In this document: piece by piece, positions 10,552 to 19,534 of the stretch
How the letters are laid out: every line of letters starts with the position of its first letter
Position numbering within the stretch: the first letter of the stretch is position 1
Assembly (NCBI GenBank): GCA_019637215.1
Contig: JAHBWB010000093.1
Location: 1-28,204, forward strand
Reading direction: 5' to 3'
Length of the DNA stretch: 28,204 nt
DNA from: Labilithrix sp.
Lineage (GTDB): Bacteria > Myxococcota_A > Polyangia > Polyangiales > Polyangiaceae
Position numbers and translations under genes: made by a program
Notes under the pieces: generated by a model
What the model was told of the DNA's origin: nothing
Database searches by the model: none
The model's input: only the letters and a program-made list of their open reading frames with translations

Positions 10552-12303
10552 TCAGCGAACGAGGCCGCCGACGGCGTTGAGCGGGCGGAGCGCTGCGCCG
10601 CCCGGGTATGCGTAGCTCGACGCCACGTCCGTCCCCCAGACCGTCACGCTGAACGGGCCCGGGCTGGTCATCTCGTGGCGTCCGGGCCCGCACGCTCCAC
10701 CGTCGCCGAGCCGGACACGGACGAGCTCGTACTTGCCTCCCGTGCCCAGGGGTTCCCAGCCGACGAGAGGTCCTGCGCAATCGAGCGTCACCGGCTCGAA
10801 GTCCTTGCCCTCCGAGCGCGCGCGGACGACCACGAGGTGCGAGTTGCGGTAGCTCGGAGCGACGTAGAACACGTAGCGATCGAGGAACTGATCGGTCGGA
10901 ATGACGTACGTGAACTCCGGATCGCCGTCATCCATCTTGGCTTTGCCGAACTCGACCCCCGTCATGTAGGCGTACACCGTGATCGGGTGCTCCGAGTCTT
11001 GAGCGCTCACGACGAAGGGCTCGTTCGTCATGAAGGTCCTCGATGCGGCAGCGTCGAGAGCCGTCGGCGCGTCCGGTGGCCGGCGTGGGTCGTACGTGAG
11101 GACCGTGCCGTCGACCGCAGCGACGATTCGATAGAGGTACGGCTCGGGCTCGCCGCGGTCGCGGCGCGACAGGTAGGGAGCGGCGGCGTACTCGCGTCCC
11201 CACGACTGCACTGGGAAGAGCTGCAGCTGAGCCTGATCGCACCAGCGCTTCCCGGTGGGGATGTTCATGCACTCGTGACCTCCGAGCACGGCCACGCTCT
11301 TGGTCGCCTCGATGCGGCTGCCATCGAGCTGCTCGCGCTGCGCGAACTGGAGCACCTCGCCGCGCTTCATGCGGTAGCTCTTCGGGGCTCCCTTCGCCGC
11401 GCCCTCGACGTCGGGCCCAGGAAGGATGTCGGCGCTGCTCAGGATCGTCACTTCGGTGTCGTCCTCGGCCGCGACGATCTGCGTCGCTGGAAAGCCGACG
11501 TCGCCTTCCCACGCGTCCGTCACGATGTAGCCGGTCTTCCAGGCCGGCACCGGGAGGAGCAGCGTGGCCGTCGCGGCGTGGCCGCCCGGCTTGCCGAGCT
11601 GATAGATGCTGTAAGCGCTCACGGGAGCCGACGTCTTGATCCGGAACGACTGCCCGCGCGCGGTCCCCTTGATGCTTGCGTCGACGACCACCGCAGGCGT
11701 GACGTCCGCCGGGCAAGGCACCCAGCCGACGCCGGTCGGAGACGGCCCGACCGGTCTCTCGGGCATGTGGTTCAGGAAGAGGACGGCGATCTCGCCGGGC
11801 TGGATCTCGCCGGTGAACGGCTCGTAGGTCACTCCGTCACCGGACGTGCGCACGACGCGAGCCGAGACCGCGAGATCGATCGCCGAGCCCGCGTACTCCG
11901 CCTCGATGCGCGCAGGAGCTCCCCAGGTGTTCGTGAGCAGCGCGCCGAAGCACGAGCCGCGGCTCTCGTCGTACCGGCTCGGCGCGAGCGCAGCAAACTC
12001 GCAGCCCATCGTCGCGGCGCTGCTGACCGCCGCGGAGCACGCCGGCACGCACACCCCCGCCGCGCAGCCTTGGTCTGGCGGGCACACCGCGACCACGAGC
12101 GACTCGTCGCATCCGTCGACCACCGCGCGGAGATCGCGCGAGCACCGTCGCTCGAGCCCCACGCACCCGTTCCCGGCCGCTGCGTCGGCGAAGCTCGTCT
12201 CCTCGATCCCGCGCCGGTAGGGATCCCGGTCGCTGCCGCAGCCGAAGGGCGCGGCTGCGACGGCGCCGAGACAGACGGCGAGGCCCGTCGCCCGGAGTCT
12301 CAT
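10552..12303 (-). CDS. Large secreted lipoprotein: Cys-rich N-terminal region plus a beta-rich domain (IgGFc-binding-N-terminal-like; hypothetical)
   Basis: ORF track. Lipoprotein signal MRLRATGLAVCLGAVAAAPFGC. 8 Cys in the first about 90 aa. The ATG at 12301-12303 overlaps the upstream gene's stop (ATGA). The domain guess is from memory. Confidence 0.7.
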   Translation of the reverse strand: MRLRATGLAVCLGAVAAAPFGCGSDRDPYRRGIEETSFADAAAGNGCVGLERRCSRDLRAVVDGCDESLVVAVCPPDQGCAAGVCVPACSAAVSSAATMGCEFAALAPSRYDESRGSCFGALLTNTWGAPARIEAEYAGSAIDLAVSARVVRTSGDGVTYEPFTGEIQPGEIAVLFLNHMPERPVGPSPTGVGWVPCPADVTPAVVVDASIKGTARGQSFRIKTSAPVSAYSIYQLGKPGGHAATATLLLPVPAWKTGYIVTDAWEGDVGFPATQIVAAEDDTEVTILSSADILPGPDVEGAAKGAPKSYRMKRGEVLQFAQREQLDGSRIEATKSVAVLGGHECMNIPTGKRWCDQAQLQLFPVQSWGREYAAAPYLSRRDRGEPEPYLYRIVAAVDGTVLTYDPRRPPDAPTALDAAASRTFMTNEPFVVSAQDSEHPITVYAYMTGVEFGKAKMDDGDPEFTYVIPTDQFLDRYVFYVAPSYRNSHLVVVRARSEGKDFEPVTLDCAGPLVGWEPLGTGGKYELVRVRLGDGGACGPGRHEMTSPGPFSVTVWGTDVASSYAYPGGAALRPLNAVGGLVR

Positions 12304-13598
12304 TCGATCGGCTCGGCCTTCGGATGCGGGAGAGAGTCGAACGTACCGCGCCCGAGCTCACCGAAGGTGTTGGCGCCCCAGCAGACGACCTTCCCATCGA
12401 CGAGGGAGGCGCACGTCGAGCCCAGCGTCGTCGCGAACGAGACGACCTTCGTCCCGACCTGCGTGACCTCGAGCGGATGTGGCCCGAAGAGCAGCGACTC
12501 GGGAGCGACGCCGAGCGCGCCCGACGTGTTGTCGCCCCACCGGAACAGTCGTCCCGTCGACAGGAGCACGCCGCCCTGGCTGCTCTCGCTGCCGCCGGAG
12601 ATCTTGACGTCGACCGCCGGCGCGAGCGCGGGGACGTAGAGTGGGCCCTTGATCGGCCGCCATCGTCGCAGGAGGCCGTCGCTCGCGACCCATGCGAACG
12701 ACCAGCTCCGGACGACGTCGAGGCTCTCCAGCGGCGACGTCCACGGCGGAATCGAAGACGTATCTCCCATCGCGGACCCGCCGAGGCTCGCGAGCCGGTT
12801 GCCCGTGAGCAAGGCGACCACAGTGTCCTCGTCGGACCAAGTCCCCACGGCCAGTGCATGCACCGGCGCGGGGAAGGAGGTCACGAGATGCGGTGGGAAC
12901 GTCTCGCTCCCGCCTGCATCGACGCCGAGGCCGTCCATCGTCTTTCCCCAGCAGTAGAGCGCGCGACTCGACGAGGCGACGGCGCACCCCATCTGAGCCC
13001 CGAGCGCGACGTCGTCGACGGGCGGGATGCCGATGACCCGCGTCGGGACGGCGAGGCTCGGCTCGCTGGGCGGCCTGCCGAGCTGACCGAAATCGTTGCG
13101 TCCCCAGCAATGGACGGCCCCGTCCGTCGTGCGCGCGCAGGTGCCGAGGTTGGGACCGACGCTGAGCTTCGTCACTCCGGAGAGTCCCACGACGGGCGCC
13201 GGCGTGGCGGCCTCGAGGATGGACACGGTCCGGCCGCGGCCAAGCGCGCCGTCGGCGGCGACGCTGCTCCCGTCCTCGAGCGTGGTCGCGGGCAGCATCG
13301 TGTCGCGCCCCCAGCATCGGACCGTCCCGTCGCGAAGGAGCCCGCACACGTGACGGCCTCCGTTGCCGCCGATCGCCACGTAGCAAGGGTCCCCCGCGCA
13401 CTGGACGTCGAGCGGCTTCGGCGCGCCCGCGTCCGAGCCGACGTTCGCGTCGGCGTCCGCGGAGACGCCCGCGTCTTCCGACGGCGACGGGCTCGGCCCC
13501 GCGTCGCTCGCCGGTGGCTGCAGGTCATCGCCCGAGGAGCACGCGACGACGAGCGCGCACGCGATCGCTCCCACGAAGAGCGCGTTCGAGAGCCTCAC
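12300..13598 (-). CDS. RCC1-repeat (regulator of chromosome condensation-like beta-propeller) lipoprotein
   Basis: This is a sub-region of the ORF 12300..14108. Start at the GTG about 13596-13598 (VRLSNALFVGAIACALVVACSSG lipobox), preceded by GGAGG 7 nt upstream and overlapping the upstream stop (GTGA). RCC1 signatures CWGRNDFGQLG, YCWGKTMDGLG, FRWGDNTSGALG and CWGANTFGELG. Confidence 0.8.
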   Translation of the reverse strand: MRLSNALFVGAIACALVVACSSGDDLQPPASDAGPSPSPSEDAGVSADADANVGSDAGAPKPLDVQCAGDPCYVAIGGNGGRHVCGLLRDGTVRCWGRDTMLPATTLEDGSSVAADGALGRGRTVSILEAATPAPVVGLSGVTKLSVGPNLGTCARTTDGAVHCWGRNDFGQLGRPPSEPSLAVPTRVIGIPPVDDVALGAQMGCAVASSSRALYCWGKTMDGLGVDAGGSETFPPHLVTSFPAPVHALAVGTWSDEDTVVALLTGNRLASLGGSAMGDTSSIPPWTSPLESLDVVRSWSFAWVASDGLLRRWRPIKGPLYVPALAPAVDVKISGGSESSQGGVLLSTGRLFRWGDNTSGALGVAPESLLFGPHPLEVTQVGTKVVSFATTLGSTCASLVDGKVVCWGANTFGELGRGTFDSLPHPKAEPIE

Positions 13599-18499: not shown

Positions 18500-19534
18500 C
18501 TAGAAGCGCCACCCCGTGCCGATCCCCGCGGAGAATCCGATCGCGGGAGCCTCGGTGACCACCCCGTCGGGCTCGACGCGCAGGCGGTCGCGCGTGAACG
18601 GAAGCCAGCCCGCACCGACCGCCTCGACGAAGACGTTTGGATGGATCTGCCAGCGGGCGGCGACGACGGCGCCGTAGTCGAACCAGAAGCGATGTGTGAC
18701 GCCGGCGCCGGGAATGGTGCGCGCCTCCGCCGACAGGACGCCGGCGTTCGAGCCGAGGCACGCCTCCATCGACAGGTGCGCCGTCACCAGGAATCGGGTC
18801 GGGCATGCCTCGATCTGCCCGGCGCTCCAGTCGATGTCCGCCTCGGTCTCGCCCACCCGGCTCGTGCGCGTGAAGCTCTTGCGAAAGCCGACGCGGAGGA
18901 CGGGGCGAAGCGACGGGAGCCGCGCGATCGGCGCGGACCACTCCGCTTCGACGTAGACGTTCACGACCGCGAGGAGGCCGGAGACGGCGCTGTTGGCCTC
19001 GGTCCGCGCACCGATCGACGGCGCGAGCCGATCGACACGCGCCGGCTTCGCCACGGGCCTCTTCGGCCGCTCTGCCGGTGTCGTCGGGGGCGCCGGCGCC
19101 GGGACGTCCGGCTCCGGCGGGTCCGCCGTCGTGCGAGCGTCGGGGACGTTCGCGGTCGGCGTCTCGCGACCGAACGCGGCGTGAGGATCGATCGCGATCG
19201 CAATCGCGATCGCGAGCCCGAGCACGACGTCGGCGCAGTCGTCTGCCTTGAGCTCTCGGCGGGCGGAATCGCCTCCCGCTCCAAGAAGATCGAGCCGTCC
19301 CTCGTAGCGGTCTCCCCGCCGGGCGATCCGGACGACGAACCGGCGCGCCGCCTCCTCCGGCTGCGCGAGCGTCCACTTCGTCGTGTACGAGGCGATCTGC
19401 CGGAGCAGCTCGTCGTCGGAGGGGCACTCGGCCGCAGCCGAATAGTCGAAGACGATGCGGTCGACGTCGTCCTCGAGGGCAAAAGCCTCCGGAGACAGGA
19501 GGCATAGAGCTACGGACAGGAGCGCCGCTCGCAC
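18500..19534 (-). CDS. Hypothetical secreted outer-membrane-like protein (signal peptide, N-terminal domain, Pro-rich linker, C-terminal beta-rich region ending in ...GWRF)
   Basis: This is the 3' part of the 964-aa ORF 18500..21394; the 5' part is antisense to the acylase gene and has low GC at codon position 3. Start at the GTG about 19532-19534, giving (M)RAALLSVALCLLSPEAFA-LEDD. The C-terminal Phe is typical of beta-barrel outer membrane proteins. Contains an (AI)4 stretch encoded by TCGCGA-type hexamer repeats at about 19186-19220. Ends with TAG, followed by the only A7 run in the window. Confidence 0.55.
   Translation of the reverse strand: MRAALLSVALCLLSPEAFALEDDVDRIVFDYSAAAECPSDDELLRQIASYTTKWTLAQPEEAARRFVVRIARRGDRYEGRLDLLGAGGDSARRELKADDCADVVLGLAIAIAIAIDPHAAFGRETPTANVPDARTTADPPEPDVPAPAPPTTPAERPKRPVAKPARVDRLAPSIGARTEANSAVSGLLAVVNVYVEAEWSAPIARLPSLRPVLRVGFRKSFTRTSRVGETEADIDWSAGQIEACPTRFLVTAHLSMEACLGSNAGVLSAEARTIPGAGVTHRFWFDYGAVVAARWQIHPNVFVEAVGAGWLPFTRDRLRVEPDGVVTEAPAIGFSAGIGTGWRF

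Follow-up and report, generated by a model that had tools for sequence, protein, structure and literature searches.

Trans-envelope control of an extracytoplasmic function (ECF) sigma factor is an established regulatory principle. In Dma1/Das1 of Bacteroidota, 40 N-terminal residues bind the sigma factor and are accompanied by a disordered periplasmic linker and an 8-stranded outer-membrane barrel, and the regulon comprises lipoproteins (PMC10927553). The FecA-FecR-FecI system applies three-component trans-envelope logic through an outer-membrane protein with a periplasmic N-domain, an inner-membrane anti-sigma factor and an ECF sigma factor, and the ECF-linked SusC/SusD loci of Bacteroides are many paralogous loci that each have their own sigma/anti-sigma pair and surface lipoproteins (established knowledge; in part PMC2729926). 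The stretch analysed here, termed the window, is a 28,204-nucleotide DNA from Labilithrix sp. (GCA_019637215.1, contig JAHBWB010000093.1, positions 1 to 28,204) with a G+C content of approximately 70%. Positions 10552-19534 of its minus strand are occupied by eight tightly packed consecutive genes in the order O-S-A-C-B1-B2-R-I (Table 1), comprising a predicted outer-membrane protein (O), a sigma factor (S), an anti-sigma-like protein (A) and five predicted lipoproteins (C, B1, B2, R and I). It is judged fairly probable that these genes form an autoregulated trans-envelope signalling cassette, resembling a split Dma, which drives five outer-membrane-tethered binding lipoproteins and is one of many diverged copies per genome.

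Dma1/Das1 is the closest characterised analog of the regulatory half of the cassette. In both, the ECF sigma factor is encoded beside its regulator and the same parts recur, A having a 45-aa N-terminus, a transmembrane helix and a Pro/Ala linker, and O having a Pro-rich linker and a barrel. Dma is a single polypeptide, whereas the cassette splits these parts over A and O, each of which bears one additional domain (TPR in A, alpha/beta in O). Dma (ECF21) is present at 1-3 copies per genome in Bacteroidota, and the cassette at tens to ~100 copies in Myxococcota. The two systems are alike in function and architecture only, and no sequence homology is shown. Compared with FecIRA, the cassette O protein is a 344-aa, 8-stranded protein and not a 22-stranded TonB-dependent transducer, and A has no FecR domain. 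Unlike SusC/SusD loci, neither the window nor the related loci contain a member of the SusC or SusD family, and enzymes are absent. The cassette also differs from both the Fec and Sus systems in that the genes predicted to depend on the sigma factor encode lipoproteins and usually not the outer-membrane protein.

Genes were called by third-position GC (GC3) frame analysis and start-codon mapping. An initial annotation of this DNA, made from the letters and without database searches, had described a run of seven or eight minus-strand genes down to position 10552. The run contains eight, and its ends correspond to the stop codon of I (10552) and the GTG start of O (19534), the latter being backed by a 98%-identical 344-aa NCBI protein from Labilithrix sp. 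Exact 4-nt overlaps are found at five junctions in the window (I/R, R/B2, B2/B1, C/A and A/S), and a sixth overlap, between C and B1, measures 34 nt, shortening to 4 nt if the alternative GTG start at 16053 is used. The sole intergenic spacer in the cassette, of 43 nt, is at the O-S junction.

Related loci were fetched by propeller similarity alone, using the B1 alignment as the query in a scan of one genome per species, and iterated hidden Markov models built from the eight window proteins were run on the six-frame open reading frames (ORFs) of 81 loci. At least 562 confirmed propeller stretches were found in reference genomes. The best 78 loci were all from Labilithrix luteola, Labilithrix metagenome-assembled genomes and related Myxococcota bins, with up to ~25 loci per genome among the best 80, and the L. 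luteola loci of the top set were scattered around the chromosome. The order O-S-A-C-B-B-R-I was nearly invariant over the 81 loci. All of O, S, A, C, R and I were nearby in 52 of the 59 B-B pairs with enough flanking DNA, and the loci yielded 45 collinear O-S-A-C-B-B-R-I cassettes and 70 C-B-B-R-I blocks, with tandem cassettes being common. Such conservation in dozens of independent loci puts the arrangement far outside what chance would produce. These counts bear out the co-occurrence of the families beside an ECF sigma factor, which the initial annotation had proposed to look for; the outcomes that it had named as refuting its reading were checked and did not appear. The gene junctions are similarly conserved: S and A overlap by 4 nt in 56 of 71 cases, the B1/B2 and B2/R junctions are 4-nt overlaps in most loci, and the spacer from O to S, with a median of 127 nt, always exceeds 10 nt. 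The initial annotation had placed an outer-membrane-like gene possibly at the head of the operon. A barrel is indeed predicted for O, but a promoter-bearing spacer separates it from the other genes, and O is better described as a conserved partner than as a demonstrable transcript head.

Proteins nearly identical to those of the window occur in Labilithrix metagenome-assembled genomes, B1 being 90% identical to its relative in Labilithrix sp. ACE_MYX5, in keeping with an origin of the window in the Labilithrix group. Gene order is kept in the neighbourhood of a 71%-identical B1 relative, but without R, and also in L. luteola. There the cassette has a partial one beside it in convergent orientation, made up of I, R, a propeller gene and, at the locus edge, a Stig1-like Cys-rich gene. 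A total of 103 L. luteola proteins with an FCGBP_N domain have been reported and proposed to be secreted (Lang et al. 2016, PMC4948705); this is the domain carried by I, and in the examined loci I genes almost always sit inside cassettes. L. luteola would therefore carry ~100 cassettes of ~9 kb, or several percent of its 12.2-Mb genome, a figure that is deduced and not counted. This suggests that soil myxobacteria of the Labilithrix group carry dozens to ~100 diverged copies of the cassette, as a large repertoire of separately switched envelope modules. Neither this massive paralogy nor the FCGBP_N membership of the last gene had been seen in the initial annotation.

Divergence was compared pairwise among 29 strictly collinear cassettes. 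O (0.21), A (0.27) and B2 (0.28) had the lowest median pairwise identity, and C (0.42) and I (0.45) the highest. Tight correlations of divergence were seen among C, B1, B2, R and I (rho 0.69-0.88) and a correlation also for O with S (rho 0.64), and correlations across these two groups were weak (0.07-0.31). In some loci the O-S-A block is inverted or relocated relative to C-B-B-R-I. Taken together, these results indicate two evolutionary modules, one regulatory (O, S and A) and one structural (C, B1, B2, R and I), with O grouping with the regulators and not with the cargo.

S is a sigma factor of the ECF type, as initially annotated. It matched the Pfam models Sigma70_r2, Sigma70_r4_2 and Sigma70_r4, and weakly Sigma70_ECF, with no match to region 1 or region 3, and it scored 67 bits against the NCBIfam model TIGR02937 (sigma70-ECF; cutoff 42.9). 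The presence of regions sigma-2 and sigma-4 only, in a protein of 177-194 aa, is characteristic of ECF (group IV) sigma factors. Every match of S to an NCBIfam equivalog model fell far below its cutoff, and the main text of the ECF reclassification paper has no mention of such a gene context (PMC7826278). Across the loci there is one S per cassette.

The protein encoded directly downstream of S, and coupled to it, is A. In alignment it has a conserved cytoplasmic N-terminus of ~45 aa, a single transmembrane helix, a Pro/Ala-rich periplasmic linker and a C-terminal TPR/BamD(YfiO)-like domain; Pfam TPR/YfiO matches were found at the C-terminus of its paralogs. This position and single-pass topology, with a cytoplasmic N-terminus, are those of an anti-sigma factor, and to this extent the initial annotation of a sigma/anti-sigma pair stands. 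A is called anti-sigma-like on the basis of position, topology and analogy rather than known-domain homology.

The model of O comprises an N-terminal periplasmic alpha/beta domain (residues ~25-121) with conserved cysteines at positions 37 and 100, a Pro-rich disordered linker (121-166) and a C-terminal 8-stranded OmpA-like barrel (170-344). In fold searches the barrel resembled OmpA, Ail, NspA, OmpX, OprF-N, OmpW and PagL. The terminal sequence GWRF is conserved and constitutes a C-terminal aromatic beta-signal as found in barrels of the OmpA/OmpX type. No match to TonB_dep_Rec, Plug or STN was found in O, and neither Pfam (searched with the window protein and 19 members) nor NCBIfam gave any match for the family. 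A profile search of the protein database with O returned 11,071 representatives at E<=1e-3, of which 4,510 were at E<=1e-10; almost all were full-length proteins of 330-380 aa. The O family is a large unannotated outer-membrane protein family without a Pfam or NCBIfam model.

An ECF-type promoter, TTTTTTTGATCG-N17-CGTTTA, was predicted in the O-S spacer, and the ATG of S (18456) begins 5 nt past the predicted -10 element. The elements expected of an autoregulatory ECF promoter, an ECF-type -35 and a -10 containing CGT, are thus present in silico directly upstream of S. In five orthologous spacers TGATCG, CGTT(T/C)ACG and CCATGACGG were invariant. The first ATG of S was invariant in the orthologous loci L001, L003, L004 and L006, and L006 has no second (downstream) ATG. 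The start giving a 194-aa S is therefore favoured, which suggests that the S mRNA may be leaderless.

Expectation-maximization (EM) analysis of the regions upstream of S recovered a motif in which a T-run and TGATC(A/G) are followed, after ~17 nt, by C(G/A)TT(C/T)A. It scored above 10 bits upstream of 59 of 86 S genes, compared with 0/58 for O, 0/71 for A, 5/85 for C and at most 3 for each of B1, B2, R and I. In two-fold cross-validation, held-out S upstream regions scored above 8 bits in 21/43 and 21/42 cases, versus 1-17% of control upstream regions. A simple test for enriched 5-mers upstream of S, O and C brought out T-runs and TGATC but was otherwise uninformative, and a generic sigma-70 promoter and terminator scan of positions 10000-20000 gave nothing above shuffled sequences.

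The motif also reappears where C is separated from the regulatory genes. In such layouts O-S-A is inverted, or S-A is placed after I, and motif scores upstream of C were higher when A does not precede C (medians of 7.9-10.7 versus 3.7). In several of these cassettes the promoter of C has the same unusual -35 and -10 elements as that of the S gene, or of the O-S-A operon, belonging to it. The same sequence, TGGAAGAT...GCGACAC, lies upstream of both S and C in L070, GATCA...GGGATTGT is the matching sequence in L046, a matched promoter pair in L055 is identical at 23 of 30 positions, and in L068 the promoters of O and C match. Promoter similarity was correlated with sigma similarity (Mantel p 0.001, rho 0.23). 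These relocated matching promoters provide the strongest evidence so far that the lipoprotein operon of each cassette is driven by the cassette's own sigma factor, as the initial annotation had proposed, and that promoter specificity has diverged among the paralogs. Together with the gene overlaps and the cross-validated motif upstream of S, they support that proposal at the level of in silico prediction.

The five downstream products share an architecture in which a signal peptide ending in Cys is followed by an acidic, low-complexity tether rich in D, A, P and S. A strict lipobox pattern was applied by hand to the N-termini of the window proteins. Only R and C passed, their signal peptides ending in ALVVAC and LLAVAC, respectively; the boxes of B1 (PFAC), B2 (PLSC) and I (PFGC) are of a relaxed type. 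Among the paralogs a lipobox-like motif was present in 91/100 B1, 67/70 B2, 84/88 R, 61/78 I and 48/85 C proteins, the counts for I and C being lowered by the choice of start codon. The +2 residue across paralogs is A, S or G and never K, and Cys34 of B1 is invariant in the alignment. The assignment of lipoprotein signals to all five products in the initial annotation therefore holds under the strict pattern for R and C, and under a relaxed one for B1, B2 and I, whose Cys is conserved in paralogs that for the most part have canonical boxes. From the conserved lipobox Cys, the tethers, the +2 residue and other conserved cysteines, C, B1, B2, R and I are predicted to be extracytoplasmic lipoproteins.

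The domain content given for these products in the initial annotation was recovered in each case. C contains exactly six CxxCxxxC modules, with 49 Cys, and a regular-expression count found six modules in 83 of 85 paralogs; it gave matches below threshold, to NF041328 (MXAN_6577-like; 49.9 bits, cutoff 100) and to Stig1. B1 is predicted by AlphaFold2 to be a 7-bladed propeller (pLDDT 85, and above 90 over residues 70-405), preceded by a disordered leader of ~65 residues and carrying an acidic disordered tether of ~40 aa. A Foldseek comparison of this model with the PDB placed Ycf48 at the top (2xbg and 5ojr; E 3e-13, target-normalised TM-score 0.74-0.76). B2 is a full-length paralog of B1 (BLASTP E 5e-12; hhalign probability 100%, E 8.9e-57 over 365 columns), so that the paired Ycf48-like propellers proposed at the outset are both accounted for. 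The window B1 and B2 proteins had no Pfam match, including to PF14870 (PSII_BNR). Among 38 relatives of B1, 11 gave weak PF14870 matches (best E 6e-7) and 7 matched Tectonin; B1 homologs in the database numbered 1201. A PDB search with the B1 sequence gave nothing meaningful, and a match to Tako8 in PDB searches was rejected as a summed repeat artefact. The likeness to Ycf48/HCF136 and to tectonins lies in the 7-bladed fold. Identity to Ycf48 is 16-18%, B1 and B2 are predicted lipoproteins with long tethers, and no photosystem genes are present in the window; myxobacteria are not known to be photosynthetic.

R carries the RCC1 repeats expected of an RCC1 propeller, with Pfam scores well above threshold for RCC1 (77.1 bits versus 21.7) and RCC1_2 (77.9 versus 22), and a match to WD40_RLD. 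BLIP-II, likewise a secreted bacterial RCC1-like propeller, is a tight protein binder; R differs in its predicted lipid anchor and in always being set inside a cassette, and the likeness considered here is that of the repeat family. I, originally described as a large beta-rich protein, can now be placed in the named family IgGFc_binding/FCGBP_N: its residues 245-557 match PF17517 over the whole profile (1-297/297) at E 1.7e-97 (326.7 bits versus 25.6). Thirteen Cys are invariant in an alignment of 25 paralogs of I, and no solved relative was found in the PDB by sequence or with the 25-member profile. Bacterial FCGBP_N members occur in gliding adhesins of the SprB/CHU_C type (Lang et al. 2016, PMC4948705). 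In contrast, I is a lipoprotein of ~585 aa and neither a giant type IX secretion system adhesin nor a mucin-like VWD protein. The same study did not describe the gene context, an ECF sigma factor or partner proteins of the L. luteola FCGBP_N proteins. The NCBIfam search assigned O, A, B1, B2, R and I to no family, and neither Pfam nor NCBIfam placed any of the eight proteins in a catalytic family such as a glycoside hydrolase, lyase or peptidase.

Literature searches, which covered open-access full text, found no description of the cassette, and in the curated libraries Pfam, NCBIfam and PADLOC no model covers O, A, B, R or I in such a setting. This agrees with the statement in the initial annotation that the combination corresponds to no known envelope system. 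The cassette is apparently undescribed; its scale, the undescribed O family and the invariable set of five lipoproteins make it of interest.

Gene structure, folds and families, co-conservation, paralogy, and the promoter motif with its relocation are the data on which the proposed signalling cassette is based; from these we infer the contacts between A and S and between O and A, the localisation of the products, complex formation and ligand binding. In the proposed mechanism, the short cytoplasmic N-terminus of A would sequester S, and the periplasmic linker and TPR domain of A would reach toward the outer membrane. There O, with its tethered periplasmic domain and barrel, would form the outer-membrane end of the relay and, with A, bridge the two membranes. 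A signal at the outer membrane would release S, and freed S would transcribe the translationally coupled genes S-A-C-B1-B2-R-I from the cassette-specific promoter just upstream of S. At the outer membrane the five tethered lipoproteins, comprising a six-module disulfide-rich stalk, three propellers and an FCGBP_N domain, might act as a joint ligand-binding assembly; a role as a recognition module is suggested by the domain types. Divergence of the promoters and of O, A and S among paralogs could then equip the cell with a repertoire in which each module is switched on its own and different modules serve different ligands of the envelope or surface.

Several observations weigh against this mechanism. 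The sequence points to no ligand beyond the weak likeness of the propellers to tectonin and Ycf48. No known anti-sigma domain (ASD class I/ZAS, RskA or FecR) was found by Pfam in A or in 24 paralogs, and fold searches identified no fold for the N-domain of O. The co-divergence of O and S could stem from linkage and not from physical interaction. The promoter motif is degenerate, with only about half of the held-out S upstream regions scoring clearly, and is as a rule absent upstream of O (0/58 above 10 bits). Clear matched promoter pairs are few (4 cases). When the best 30-mer match between C upstream regions and those of S or O was compared generically, the increase was modest (mean 19.8 versus 18.9 of 30, Mann-Whitney p 0.005), and gene-model artefacts account for several of the 'split' cases in that comparison. 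Shared ancestry by itself could explain why promoter similarity is correlated with sigma similarity.

Other explanations were weighed against the same data. Nutrient capture in the manner of a polysaccharide utilization locus (PUL), with each cassette sensing and harvesting one polymer, propellers that bind or cleave glycans and the ECF pair as a substrate-responsive switch, is considered unlikely. It would fit the dozens of paralogous cassettes per genome, each with an ECF sigma/anti-sigma-like pair, an outer-membrane protein and surface-type lipoproteins, and the B propellers are weakly tectonin (lectin)- and BNR-like; in a Sandaracinaceae locus a related propeller gene adjoins an N-glycanase_C protein. 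The cassettes nevertheless contain no TonB-dependent transporter or SusD-like protein and have no transporter conserved beside them, the 8-stranded barrel of O is too small for polymer import, and the Pfam and NCBIfam searches detected no catalytic family among the eight proteins. A role in the assembly or repair of envelope complexes, as a housekeeping biogenesis or stress operon in which the propellers and the TPR protein would act like Ycf48 and BamD, is very improbable. Ycf48 is an assembly factor as well as the best structural match of B1, and the periplasmic domain of A is weakly like BamD/YfiO, but such a role leaves unexplained the tens to ~100 copies per genome, their 21-45% identity and their separate sigma factors and promoters, and the cassette is limited to one myxobacterial lineage.

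ECF sigma factors typically respond to envelope insults, the RCC1-like propeller BLIP-II inhibits beta-lactamases, and lysozyme-inhibitor and type VI secretion system (T6SS)-immunity lipoproteins protect the periplasm. The cassettes could accordingly be pictured as an inducible envelope-defence array, in which the lipoproteins are anchored inhibitors or decoys against envelope-attacking proteins of competitors, prey or phages and each cassette is switched on by what it counters. Consistent with this picture, each of the five products carries a non-enzymatic protein-binding fold on a tether, an arms race would be in line with a large, diverged repertoire whose regulation is insulated, and the Dma1 analog affects toxin resistance and vesiculation (PMC10927553). 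The array is also regarded as improbable: none of the eight proteins had a PADLOC match, the cassettes have no linked genes for toxins or effectors, and a fixed set of five proteins with a rigid six-module stalk resembles one assembled structure more than it does separate inhibitors. Chance juxtaposition of unrelated secreted-protein genes with an ordinary ECF pair has practically no probability left. RCC1, propeller, Cys-rich and ECF genes are each common in myxobacterial genomes as a matter of general knowledge, but the same eight families in the same order, with 4-nt overlaps, in 45 collinear cassettes from several genomes refute it by synteny.

If the genes do form a sigma-controlled trans-envelope signalling cassette, as preferred here, they would represent a large uncharacterised envelope system of Myxococcota in which a familiar logic is carried by unfamiliar hardware, namely an 8-stranded barrel family of >4,500 diverged representatives that no Pfam model covers and a fixed lipoprotein quintet. 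The 103 FCGBP_N proteins of L. luteola would be explained, and a domain associated with animal mucus would gain a testable bacterial context. The paralogs would provide a natural library of presumably orthogonal ECF sigma/promoter/anti-sigma sets, of interest to synthetic biology, and what a soil myxobacterium discriminates with ~100 separately switched surface modules could be tested in the cultivable strain DSM 27648. A more far-reaching extension, tentative and on the whole rather doubtful, would be that ~100 independently wired receptor cassettes occupy several percent of a 12-Mb genome, each being a new trans-envelope device in which a small outer-membrane barrel and a TPR anti-sigma factor work as a split Dma, with a private sigma factor and promoter and a five-protein surface binding complex. 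Such a sensing-and-response repertoire for prey, competitors or polymers would be comparable in scale to the PULs of Bacteroides, although built from entirely different parts, and would give the first functional context for bacterial FCGBP_N.

Table 1 Positions of the cassette genes, the predicted promoter and neighbouring features in the window.
Feature	Position	Strand	Description
O	18500-19534	-	Type I signal peptide; periplasmic N-domain and OmpA-like barrel (predicted); GTG start
S	17872-18456	-	ECF-type sigma factor, 194 aa; alternative start at 18405 gives 177 aa
A	17153-17875	-	Anti-sigma-like single-pass membrane protein with C-terminal TPR/BamD(YfiO)-like domain
C	16050-17156	-	Predicted lipoprotein with six CxxCxxxC (NCGxCGxxC-type) modules, 49 Cys
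B1	14866-16083	-	Predicted Ycf48/tectonin-like 7-bladed beta-propeller lipoprotein
B2	13595-14869	-	Second predicted propeller lipoprotein, full-length B1 paralog
R	12300-13598	-	Predicted RCC1-repeat beta-propeller lipoprotein
I	10552-12303	-	Predicted ~585-aa Cys-rich lipoprotein with full-length FCGBP_N/IgGFc_binding domain
Predicted promoter	18462-18496	-	ECF-type, in O-S spacer
T-run	18496-18490	-	Promoter part
-35-like element	18490-18485	-	TGATCG; followed by 17-nt spacer
-10-like element	18467-18462	-	CGTTTA
Acylase	19709-22228	+	PvdQ/penicillin-amidase-like Ntn acylase
274-aa protein	22348-23172	+	Flanking protein
164-aa protein	9985-10479	+	Flanking protein
Major-vault-protein-like gene	6645-9422	-	925 aa
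tRNA-Glu (CTC)	6518-6590	-	
Cytochrome fusion	2393-5266	-	957 aa

Some loci depart from the common gene order. The copy number of R is the most variable, with 1-3 extra RCC1 genes after I in L023, L025, L058, L080 and L081; L044 has the order B-R-B-R, and L001 and L002 are without R. In another member of Myxococcota, outside the Labilithrix lineage (L082; GCA_047601445.1, 6203-11878), an IgGFc_binding protein is encoded beside two relatives of the B propellers, of 625-668 aa, with no ECF sigma factor, an arrangement that could represent the structural module in a simpler or ancestral state. A mobile element was rejected as an origin of the copies, with no transposase or integrase being linked and the paralogs only 21-45% identical.

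At the O end of the cassette, a 964-aa ORF (18500-21394) is spurious beyond 19534, and the true neighbour is the divergent plus-strand gene for a PvdQ-like acylase (Table 1). This protein matched Pfam at E 6e-114, fell below the cutoff of the NCBIfam PvdQ model and has a lipoprotein-like signal (MFAAC). It is placed outside the cassette because orthologous cassettes have different neighbours. The 274-aa protein encoded on the same strand has a lipoprotein-like signal (LLGCTGG) and no Pfam match.

On the other side, the 164-aa protein encoded on the plus strand gave a borderline match to Lipocalin_4 (22.5 bits, cutoff 22.4). This small gene lies between the cassette and a bacterial gene of the major-vault-protein type (Pfam MVP_shoulder E 2e-14, Vault_3 E 7e-7), which is ~1 kb from the cassette. 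Farther along the minus strand, a cytochrome b, with both its N- and C-terminal domains, is fused to a C-terminal cytochrome c domain. The tRNA-Glu gene (CTC) was the sole match of Rfam and ARAGORN in the window.

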